From assembly GCA_028687715.1 (NCBI GenBank), contig JAQTZP010000004.1, forward strand, positions 25,751 through 89,750: a stretch of DNA of 64,000 bases. The letters are read 5' to 3'. The notes under the pieces are model-generated. The model was not told where the DNA came from and did no database searches. It was given only the letters and a program-made list of their open reading frames with translations. This DNA comes from Minisyncoccota bacterium (lineage in GTDB: Bacteria; Patescibacteriota; Minisyncoccia; Minisyncoccales; GWA2-38-27). This document shows, piece after piece, positions 60,435 to 61,685 of this stretch (the first letter of the stretch is position 1; the number at the start of each line of letters is the position of its first letter). A program made the position numbers and the translations under genes.

Positions 60435-61685
60435 ATGAATAATTTATTTTTTGATTCAAATTTAGTGTCAATAGAAAAAAGATCATTTGAACTTGTAGAA
60501 CGAAAGGGAATTGGGCATCCCGATACGCTAGCTGACGGAGTGGCAGAAGCGATTTGTTTGGAGTATTCAAATTATTGCTATAATCATTTCGGAGCTATTT
60601 TACATCAGATGTTAGATAAAATTATGTTTATCGGGGGAAAAGGTGAATTTGCTTTTAATTACGGAAAAATGTTAGAACCGTGGAAACTTATAATAAACGG
60701 AAAGCTAACTGAAAGTTTCGGTAATACCCAGATTAATTATCAGGATTTGGCTACTCGTGTTACTAAAGATTATTTACGGAAAGTAATTCCTAACTTAGAT
60801 GTAGAACGTTGGCTGAATATTATTTTTTATACTTCGACATCTTCGAAAGCCCCCTATTGGTTTCATCCTCGTACGCTAACTGATGTGCCAGATGCCAGTA
60901 ATCCTTATGCTAATGATACGGTGACAGCAGTCGGGTATTGGCCTTTATCAATAACAGAAAGATTAACTTTATTAATGGAAAGGTATTTTTATCACAAAAA
61001 TGATACTCCTCGTTTTTCTTTTATTGGACAAGATATTAAGATATTATCTGTTAGAAAAAAGAAAAATATTGATATTACCATATGCGTACCTTTTTTCTCC
61101 GCTAAAACCCCTAATGCTGATGTATACTTTAGTCGCAAAAGAAAAATACAAAATGATTTACAGAATATAGCTAATCAATTTTTGAAAGGAAAATACAAAG
61201 TTATACTATCTATTAATACCCAGGATGAAATGATCAATAATCCGTCCAGAGGTATAGGATTTTACTTTGTAGTTTCCGGATCAGCGTTAGATTCGGGAGA
61301 AGAAGGTGTGGTTGGACGAGGAAATCGATCTCGAGGATTAATTTCAAATGTCCGACCTTACAGTATAGAAGGAATCCATGGCAAAAATCCAGTGTATCAT
61401 GTTGGTAAAGTTTTTAACTATATTGCTGATTTGTTTGCTAAAAAGATTTCTGAGGAATTTAGGTGTGAATGTAATGTTTTTATATCATCTCGAAATGGCG
61501 ATGATTTGAATATACCTAGACATATTATTATTCAAACAGATAAAAAAATTATTAATAAAAAGAAAGTTAACGTTGTATTAGATAAAATTTTGGAGAAAAA
61601 TATTGCTAAAGAAATTTTATTGCATAAGCCATATTTACCAATCCCGGGCGGTGGAAATGGATATGTAGCATCATTAAGCATTTAG
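60435..61685 (+). CDS. Archaeal-type S-adenosylmethionine synthetase (MAT) family protein
   Basis: About 416 aa from the ATG at 60435. The N-terminal ELVERKGIGHPDTLADGVAEA matches the archaeal MAT signature (ERKGxGHPDxxxDxxAE). The size also matches archaeal MAT. Confidence 0.7.
   Translation: MNNLFFDSNLVSIEKRSFELVERKGIGHPDTLADGVAEAICLEYSNYCYNHFGAILHQMLDKIMFIGGKGEFAFNYGKMLEPWKLIINGKLTESFGNTQINYQDLATRVTKDYLRKVIPNLDVERWLNIIFYTSTSSKAPYWFHPRTLTDVPDASNPYANDTVTAVGYWPLSITERLTLLMERYFYHKNDTPRFSFIGQDIKILSVRKKKNIDITICVPFFSAKTPNADVYFSRKRKIQNDLQNIANQFLKGKYKVILSINTQDEMINNPSRGIGFYFVVSGSALDSGEEGVVGRGNRSRGLISNVRPYSIEGIHGKNPVYHVGKVFNYIADLFAKKISEEFRCECNVFISSRNGDDLNIPRHIIIQTDKKIINKKKVNVVLDKILEKNIAKEILLHKPYLPIPGGGNGYVASLSI

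Follow-up and report, generated by a model that had tools for sequence, protein, structure and literature searches.

A methionine adenosyltransferase (MAT) of the archaeal type was found to be encoded in a 64,000-nucleotide stretch of contig JAQTZP010000004.1 from a Minisyncoccota bacterium (the whole stretch is called the window below). The open reading frame (ORF) at 60435-61685 is a real member of the archaeal-type MAT family in an ultra-small bacterium of the candidate phyla radiation (CPR), and it occupies the fourth place in a compact predicted operon of five genes. With moderate confidence, the protein is read here as a catalytically competent bacterial paralogue dedicated to this gene cassette, in an operon that would make a small molecule. 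Each domain of life is usually taken to have its own type of MAT, present in a single copy and serving a housekeeping function. In bacteria, the archaeal-type fold has diversified into two or more clades of paralogues, each fixed in a biosynthetic-looking cassette of its own. The clade of the window protein, recognised by a GEEG motif, bears a diagnostic change at the residue which holds the substrate amino group and the ribose. In a literature search, no description was found of bacterial paralogues of archaeal-type MAT, of the GEEG clade or of the cassette, and the claim of novelty is bounded by the literature covered.

Family assignment and active site of the MAT

The ORF runs from an ATG at 60435 to a stop codon that ends at 61685. 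An alternative in-frame ATG at 60372 would give a protein of 437 aa and an overlap of 46 nt with the upstream gene; the start at 60435 was preferred because the N-termini of the homologues (MNNLFYDS...) align there. GenBank entry MDD2732079.1 matches the protein at 100% identity; it too has the 416-aa form, lies on a contig of 107,683 bp and is recorded as 'methionine adenosyltransferase [Candidatus Paceibacterota/Pacebacteria bacterium]'.

The initial annotation, made from the sequence without database searches, had placed this protein in the archaeal MAT family and not with bacterial MetK, based on an N-terminal signature and a length of about 416 aa. Both features were recovered, with the ERKGIGHPDTLADGVAEA signature at residues 22-39 of a 416-aa product, and the assignment was borne out by profile and structure comparisons. 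Membership was tested for the archaeal-type MAT family as represented by PF01941 and NCBIfam PRK04439. In a Pfam profile search, PF01941 (AdoMet_Synthase) scored 298.2 bits (E = 1.1e-88, gathering cut-off 27), the match spanning residues 10-391 of the protein and positions 10-382 of the 395 in the profile. The same search gave no match of the 416-aa protein to the MetK domains PF00438, PF02772 and PF02773, and the MetK motifs GAGDQG and GGGAFS were absent from it. With E-values between 3e-58 and 5e-55, the archaeal MATs of M. jannaschii, T. kodakarensis, P. furiosus and S. solfataricus are the nearest solved sequence relatives; they are of the same family and fold and 32-35% identical to the window protein. 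An AlphaFold model, built on 24 homologues with a pLDDT of 81.8, was compared with the archaeal MAT structures 4hpv, 4l4q, 7p83 and 6s81, giving TM scores of 0.78-0.81. Upon comparison with bacterial or eukaryotic MetK, the TM score was about 0.5, which for bacterial MetK corresponds to the same three-domain MAT architecture at a distance, presumably with the same type of reaction.

The 416-aa protein scored under every methionine adenosyltransferase equivalog cut-off of NCBIfam. The best model, NF003362, gave 368.4 bits versus a cut-off of 481, and four other MAT models gave 243-264 bits versus cut-offs of 435-577. As it fails these cut-offs and lacks one defining substrate ligand, described below, the protein is classed here in a sub-family of the archaeal-type MAT and not as an orthologue of the archaeal enzyme.

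The window in which the gene lies is unambiguously bacterial, with genes for DnaA, DnaN, a class A penicillin-binding protein (PBP1), a Mur ligase, the delta subunit of DNA polymerase III, RuvB, TyrRS and RsmA. The bacterial context that had been noted for the archaeal-type gene was thereby confirmed.

For the MAT of T. kodakarensis (Tk), His33 is the catalytic acid, Tyr271 stacks on the adenine, and Asp201 and Asp283 bind the ribose hydroxyls, Asp283 also binding the methionine amino group; His62, Asn64 and Asn161 are ligands of the methionine carboxylate and Asp144 and Leu145 lie on the gating loop (PMC3853416). These positions were surveyed in an alignment of 233 sequences, made up of 50%-identity representatives drawn from a search of 1.84 billion proteins, the genome loci and four reconstructed PDB sequences. 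The expectation that the catalytic residues of archaeal MATs are kept held for most of them. The catalytic and adenosine-binding residues Tk His33, Asp201 and Tyr271 correspond to H28, D200 and Y277 and are invariant or nearly so in the GEEG clade. The carboxylate ligands Tk His62 and Asn161 are present as H57 and N160, the gating-loop pair Tk Asp144/Leu145 as D150/V151, again an Asp with a hydrophobic residue, and the GRGNR and GKNP motifs are shared with the archaeal enzymes.

Two ligands did not conform. Tk Asp283-Asp284 (GDDG) is replaced by Glu289-Glu290 (GEEG), and the position of Tk Asp283 is Glu in all 53 clade members and Asp in all 160 other aligned family members. Tk Asn64 is replaced by Met59 (LHQMLDK). 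At this position, Asn was counted in 40 of the 53 GEEG sequences and M, T or H in 9, in a tally that covers the four commonest residues; locally, the closest relatives show Q-M or Q-T, some other sequences H-H and the majority the canonical H-N, and the substitution is restricted to some cassette types. The window protein and its clade further differ from the archaeal MATs in the gating loop, which is longer by about five residues and bears a conserved motif of its own, and in a conserved tail, FLPxPGGGNGY, at the C-terminus.

Since the catalytic His, the phosphate motifs and the adenosine ligands are kept, the protein is predicted to be an active, catalytically competent adenosyltransferase. 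An inactive relic or an annotation artefact is highly improbable. The scores under the NCBIfam cut-offs would fit such a relic, as would the low confidence of the AlphaFold model at residues 282-313, the GxxGxxGRGNR active-site loop; on the other side, the ORF is intact and full-length, synteny is kept across phyla, and 65 columns are invariant among 24 homologues of 41-73% identity, with all phosphate and ribose motifs included. The active sites of solved MAT dimers are located at the dimer interface (PMC3853416), and the loop may be poorly predicted because a monomer was modelled without this interface.

A conserved cassette around the GEEG-type MAT

The five genes run head to tail on the forward strand from 56839 to 62710, separated by gaps of 49, 26, 17 and 11 nt (Table 1). 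The MAT gene is flanked on the same strand by genes for a glycosyltransferase resembling mannosylglycerate synthase (MGS) and for an HprK-like kinase. Scans for promoters and terminators performed no better than on shuffled sequence. The CofE-type ligase, first in the operon, matched TIGR01916 with 232 bits, above the cut-off of 180.65, and CofE in the PDB with an E-value of 1.7e-37. For the radical S-adenosylmethionine (SAM) enzyme, every NCBIfam match was far under its cut-off. The glycosyltransferase matched NF010496 (GpgS) weakly, and the only proteins of solved structure related to it in sequence are chains of the Rhodothermus mannosylglycerate synthase, which are equal to it in length.

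Table 1. Features of the window and loci of the GDEG-type MAT discussed in the text.
Feature	Position or loci	Strand	Remarks
CofE-type ligase (F420-0:L-glutamate ligase family)	56839-57615	+	PF01996 213 bits; first gene of operon
B12-binding radical SAM enzyme	57665-59245	+	PF02310 + PF04055; variable slot of cassette
GT-A glycosyltransferase, mannosylglycerate / glucosyl-3-phosphoglycerate synthase-like	59272-60417	+	PF00535 + PF21969 MGS_GT
MAT gene	60435-61685	+	416 aa; PF01941 298.2 bits; archaeal MAT fold; GEEG sub-clade
HprK/P-like P-loop kinase	61697-62710	+	last gene of operon
B12-binding radical SAM gene	341-1837	-	
B12-binding radical SAM gene	4463-6001	-	
RsmA	37046-37879	-	
GDEG-type loci	L016, L021, L025, L027, L029		Patescibacteria
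GDEG-type loci	L015, L039-L042, L045, L048, L051, L069, L080		Nocardia, Nocardiopsis, Streptomyces, Kitasatospora
GDEG-type loci	L139-L149		

To count linkage, profile HMMs were built for the partner genes and searched within 9 kb of the MAT gene in 51 unique GEEG-type loci, of which 15 had at least 4 kb on both sides, and in 82 loci of other PF01941 clades. The HprK-like kinase was found in 43 of the 51 loci (12/15 with both flanks) and the MGS-like glycosyltransferase in 41 (15/15). The CofE-type ligase followed with 19/51 (9/15). Less frequent were a shikimate-dehydrogenase-like gene and a fusion of xylose-isomerase-TIM and IolG-like domains (17/51 each), an HD_4 hydrolase (15/51) and the B12-binding radical SAM gene (10/51). 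None of the 82 loci carrying other PF01941 clades had the cassette partners. Because the two partners are near-obligate in GEEG loci and absent from those 82, the core of the cassette is the MAT, the MGS-like glycosyltransferase and the HprK-like kinase, with lineage-specific tailoring genes. This fixed embedding sets the window MAT, which moreover has a bacterial host, apart from the archaeal-type genes sampled.

The composition of the cassette varied with distance from the window protein. Relatives at 72-74% identity, a Buchananbacteria metagenome-assembled genome (MAG) among them, have the same cassette with a LarA-like gene replacing the radical SAM gene. In the slot between CofE and the glycosyltransferase, this homologue of the Ni-pincer 2-hydroxyacid racemase was located in L001-L005 and L090 (for example L001:7649-8797 and L003:7683-8858). 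The replacement suggests that the two unrelated proteins, the B12-binding radical SAM enzyme and the LarA-like homologue, do an equivalent tailoring step. At 47-53% identity the same partners occur in a rearranged gene order, and in one of these relatives a homoserine-kinase-like APH kinase and a HAD phosphatase take the place of the HprK-like gene. Accessory genes resembling shikimate dehydrogenase, IolG and dehydroquinate synthase were found in other lineages.

Two observations were made at the borders of the cassette. A toxin-antitoxin pair of the MNT (Polbeta nucleotidyltransferase) / HEPN (HepT-like) kind lies directly downstream of it in the window (63146-63978), and similar pairs flank the cassette in L006. 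In L001, a Parcubacteria-like MAG, a CDP-alcohol phosphatidyltransferase gene and a CarS-like (CDP-archaeol-synthase-like) gene, both archaeal-flavoured lipid genes, were found downstream of the cassette at 13827-15319.

Spread of the clade and coexistence with MetK

Neighbour-joining placed 52 of the 53 Glu-bearing sequences in one clade of 57, which also holds five sequences without the Glu. The bootstrap of this clade was weak (16-27%), so the GEEG clade is defined here by motif and synteny and not by the tree. The non-GDDG paralogues, apparently all bacterial, were split from the archaeal-type GDDG group with a bootstrap of 72%.

On the non-GDDG side of this split, the GEEG clade groups with a second bacterial PF01941 clade, which carries GDEG and usually HNF, and which was found in Patescibacteria, Streptomyces, Nocardia and gut metagenomes (Table 1). 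Like the GEEG type, it is a bacterial paralogue of the archaeal-type MAT in a conserved, biosynthetic-looking cassette; unlike it, Asp283 is retained and the partners differ. Neighbours were annotated for the five Patescibacteria loci. A truncated AlaRS-like protein was found in L025, L027 and L029 and a Peptidase_S51/GATase-like protein in L021, L025 and L027. In addition, L027 holds a myo-inositol-1-phosphate synthase, L025 a GT1 glycosyltransferase and L016 a GT2 glycosyltransferase and an APH kinase. The GDEG type looks like another dedicated MAT paralogue.

The distribution of the GEEG-type cassette was followed with motif patterns through one genome per GTDB species; the closest relatives of the window MAT were not among the matches listed. 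Among those listed, the cassette occurred at 35-40% identity in Shapirobacteria, Saccharibacteria, the cyanobacterium Moorena, a gut Clostridium MAG, Streptomyces nogalater JCM 4799 and a Solirubrobacterales MAG. When metagenomes were scanned with the MAT protein as the only query, no matches were obtained; a GEEG-specific fragment alignment gave 49 GEEG-type loci and 11 of other types. The cassette is widespread among CPR bacteria and has scattered occurrences in Actinomycetota, Cyanobacteria and Firmicutes. It defines an uncharacterised pathway, one that culturable Streptomyces share with many CPR bacteria.

The PF01941 family is small, with 1298 clusters at 50% identity and 4920 matches at 90% clustering, archaea included, versus at least 8000 candidate matches for bacterial MetK. 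This difference suggests that the GEEG clade is patchy, not universal, in the CPR. MetK is common in Microgenomates. Archaeal-type MATs of canonical appearance, with GDDG or GDSG and without the cassette, were seen in Nitrospira (L043, L060, L072), in the anammox bacterium Brocadia (L061) and in Anaerolineales of the Chloroflexota (L047, L075); these may be real archaeal-type housekeeping MATs in bacteria.

Two possibilities had been put forward for the window gene, namely that it is the organism's only SAM synthetase or that it is a pathway-dedicated paralogue next to a metK elsewhere. If it were the sole housekeeping enzyme of a reduced CPR genome, metK would have been lost and the location in the cassette would be secondary. 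Consistent with this, there is no MetK motif and no other MAT within the 64-kb window, which encodes several SAM-dependent enzymes (the three radical SAM enzymes and RsmA mentioned in the initial annotation were all located). The protein keeps its core catalytic residues and bears the NCBI name methionine adenosyltransferase, and the 10-kb flanks in the nearest Parcubacteria-type relatives showed no MetK.

The distribution of the clade argues the other way. GEEG-type MATs are nearly always tied to the cassette, and metK-bearing bacteria are among their hosts. Streptomyces, Clostridium and cyanobacteria carry metK, and in the Shapirobacteria contig L010 a complete bacterial metK with PF00438, PF02772 and PF02773 (9079-10236, reverse strand) is convergent to the CofE gene of the cassette and abuts it. 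The patchiness of the small PF01941 family in the CPR and the scores under every NCBIfam equivalog cut-off likewise speak against a sole housekeeping enzyme, which we consider unlikely. As the GEEG clade is tied to the cassette, present in metK-bearing organisms and found beside metK in L010, the evidence favours the pathway-dedicated paralogue, and the MAT is probably not the general SAM synthetase of the organism. MetK was also found near a GDEG-type MAT in the metagenome contig L143, and its adjacency to MAT paralogues may itself be functional.

Predicted pathway and further features of the window

The simplest reading of the GEEG-type MAT is a pathway-dedicated SAM synthetase, its activity being predicted from the conserved residues. 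Enzymes of the mannosylglycerate synthase type attach a sugar to the 2-OH of glycerate-type acids. CofE acts on a 2-O-substituted lactyl group, where it forms an amide at the carboxylate, and LarA homologues racemise 2-hydroxy acids. Both the mannosylglycerate-type glycosyltransferase and CofE act on 2-O-substituted 2-hydroxy acids, which would give the cassette a coherent logic. Together with the LarA-like gene and the genes resembling shikimate dehydrogenase, IolG and dehydroquinate synthase, these partners suggest that 2-hydroxy acids or cyclitol acids are the compounds acted on.

The product of the cassette would then be a small molecule with a glycosylated 2-hydroxy acid or cyclitol acid as its base. 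In such a pathway, the MAT would turn ATP and methionine into SAM or a very close analogue, the glycosyltransferase would glycosylate the acid, and the CofE-type ligase would add an amino acid to the free carboxylate, in the way that CofE extends F420-0 at its lactyl carboxylate. The HprK/P-like kinase would phosphorylate an intermediate, and the SAM-derived group may be used by, or incorporated via, one of these steps. The pathways of mannosylglycerate or glucosyl-3-phosphoglycerate and of F420 provide the nearest comparisons for the glycosyltransferase and the ligase, and neither includes a MAT or an HprK-like kinase, unlike the cassette.

Several points weigh against a dedicated, SAM-making paralogue. 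Two methionine ligands are altered (Tk Asp283 to Glu and Tk Asn64 to Met), the bootstrap of the clade is low, and the CofE-type ligase falls outside the strict core of the cassette. Most cassettes have no recognisable SAM-consuming enzyme (B12-binding radical SAM gene in 10/51 loci), and we know of no enzyme activity for any member of the GEEG clade. The SAM users of the window, RsmA and three radical SAM enzymes, are without a second MAT in the 64 kb, and the gene at 60435-61685 could still be the only SAM source of the organism. With a SAM consumer mostly absent and with both substitutions in place, there is also room for a product of the GEEG-type MAT that may not be SAM.

In the latter case, the enzyme would be a neofunctionalised adenosyltransferase acting on a thioether intermediate or an N-acylated methionine and giving a new sulfonium or adenosylated metabolite. 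All clade members have Glu in place of the Asp that contacts both the ribose and the amino group of methionine, the adjacent Asp is also changed to Glu, and the sub-clade of the window protein has Met or Thr instead of Asn64, a ligand of the carboxylate. The longer gating loop with its own motif, the scarcity of known SAM-consuming enzymes in the cassettes and the frequent linkage of a CofE-type ligase, which forms amides on carboxylates, would fit as well. Against this, the exchange of Asp for Glu is conservative, His62, Asn161 and the gating-loop Asp with its hydrophobic neighbour are kept, and Asn64 itself is retained in 40 of the 53 clade members. A neofunctionalised enzyme is regarded as rather unlikely. 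Equally doubtful is the specific form in which GEEG-type enzymes would adenosylate an intermediate of the linked glycosyltransferase, kinase and CofE-type ligase to give a new adenosylated metabolite or cofactor, sulfonium or nucleoside-like. If the enzyme were indeed to take a substrate other than methionine, this would widen the range of reactions known for the MAT fold and help in the production of SAM analogues. For the cassette-dedicated paralogue preferred here, automatic 'methionine adenosyltransferase' labels may be wrong, as may metabolic reconstructions of CPR bacteria which count GEEG genes as a source of SAM.

Two other roles for the cassette were considered and dropped. An anti-phage system was discarded, PADLOC having matched none of the MAT, the ligase, the glycosyltransferase and the kinase; its only match was weak and linked the radical SAM gene with PDC-M51A, a candidate system. 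A pathway for ribosomally synthesised and post-translationally modified peptides, considered for the HprK-like kinase, the GT2 glycosyltransferase and the distantly ApyD-like radical SAM enzyme, was rejected since no conserved small ORF was found near the cassettes. As regards F420 biosynthesis, the ligase passes the CofE cut-off, but CofC, CofD and FO synthase were not among the annotated ORFs of the window, a set that does not take in every small ORF.

Elsewhere in the window, the two radical SAM genes on the reverse strand (Table 1) flank the Mur ligase gene (1834-3156); with the one in the cassette, there are three B12-binding radical SAM genes within 64 kb of a reduced CPR genome. The DnaA and DnaN genes (30431-33114) lie in the stretch of lowest G+C content of the window (28-31%), and this is probably the chromosomal origin region. 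An ORF of 1421 aa on the reverse strand (15493-19758) had a single Rha78A-like Ig domain as its only Pfam match and may encode a large surface protein.

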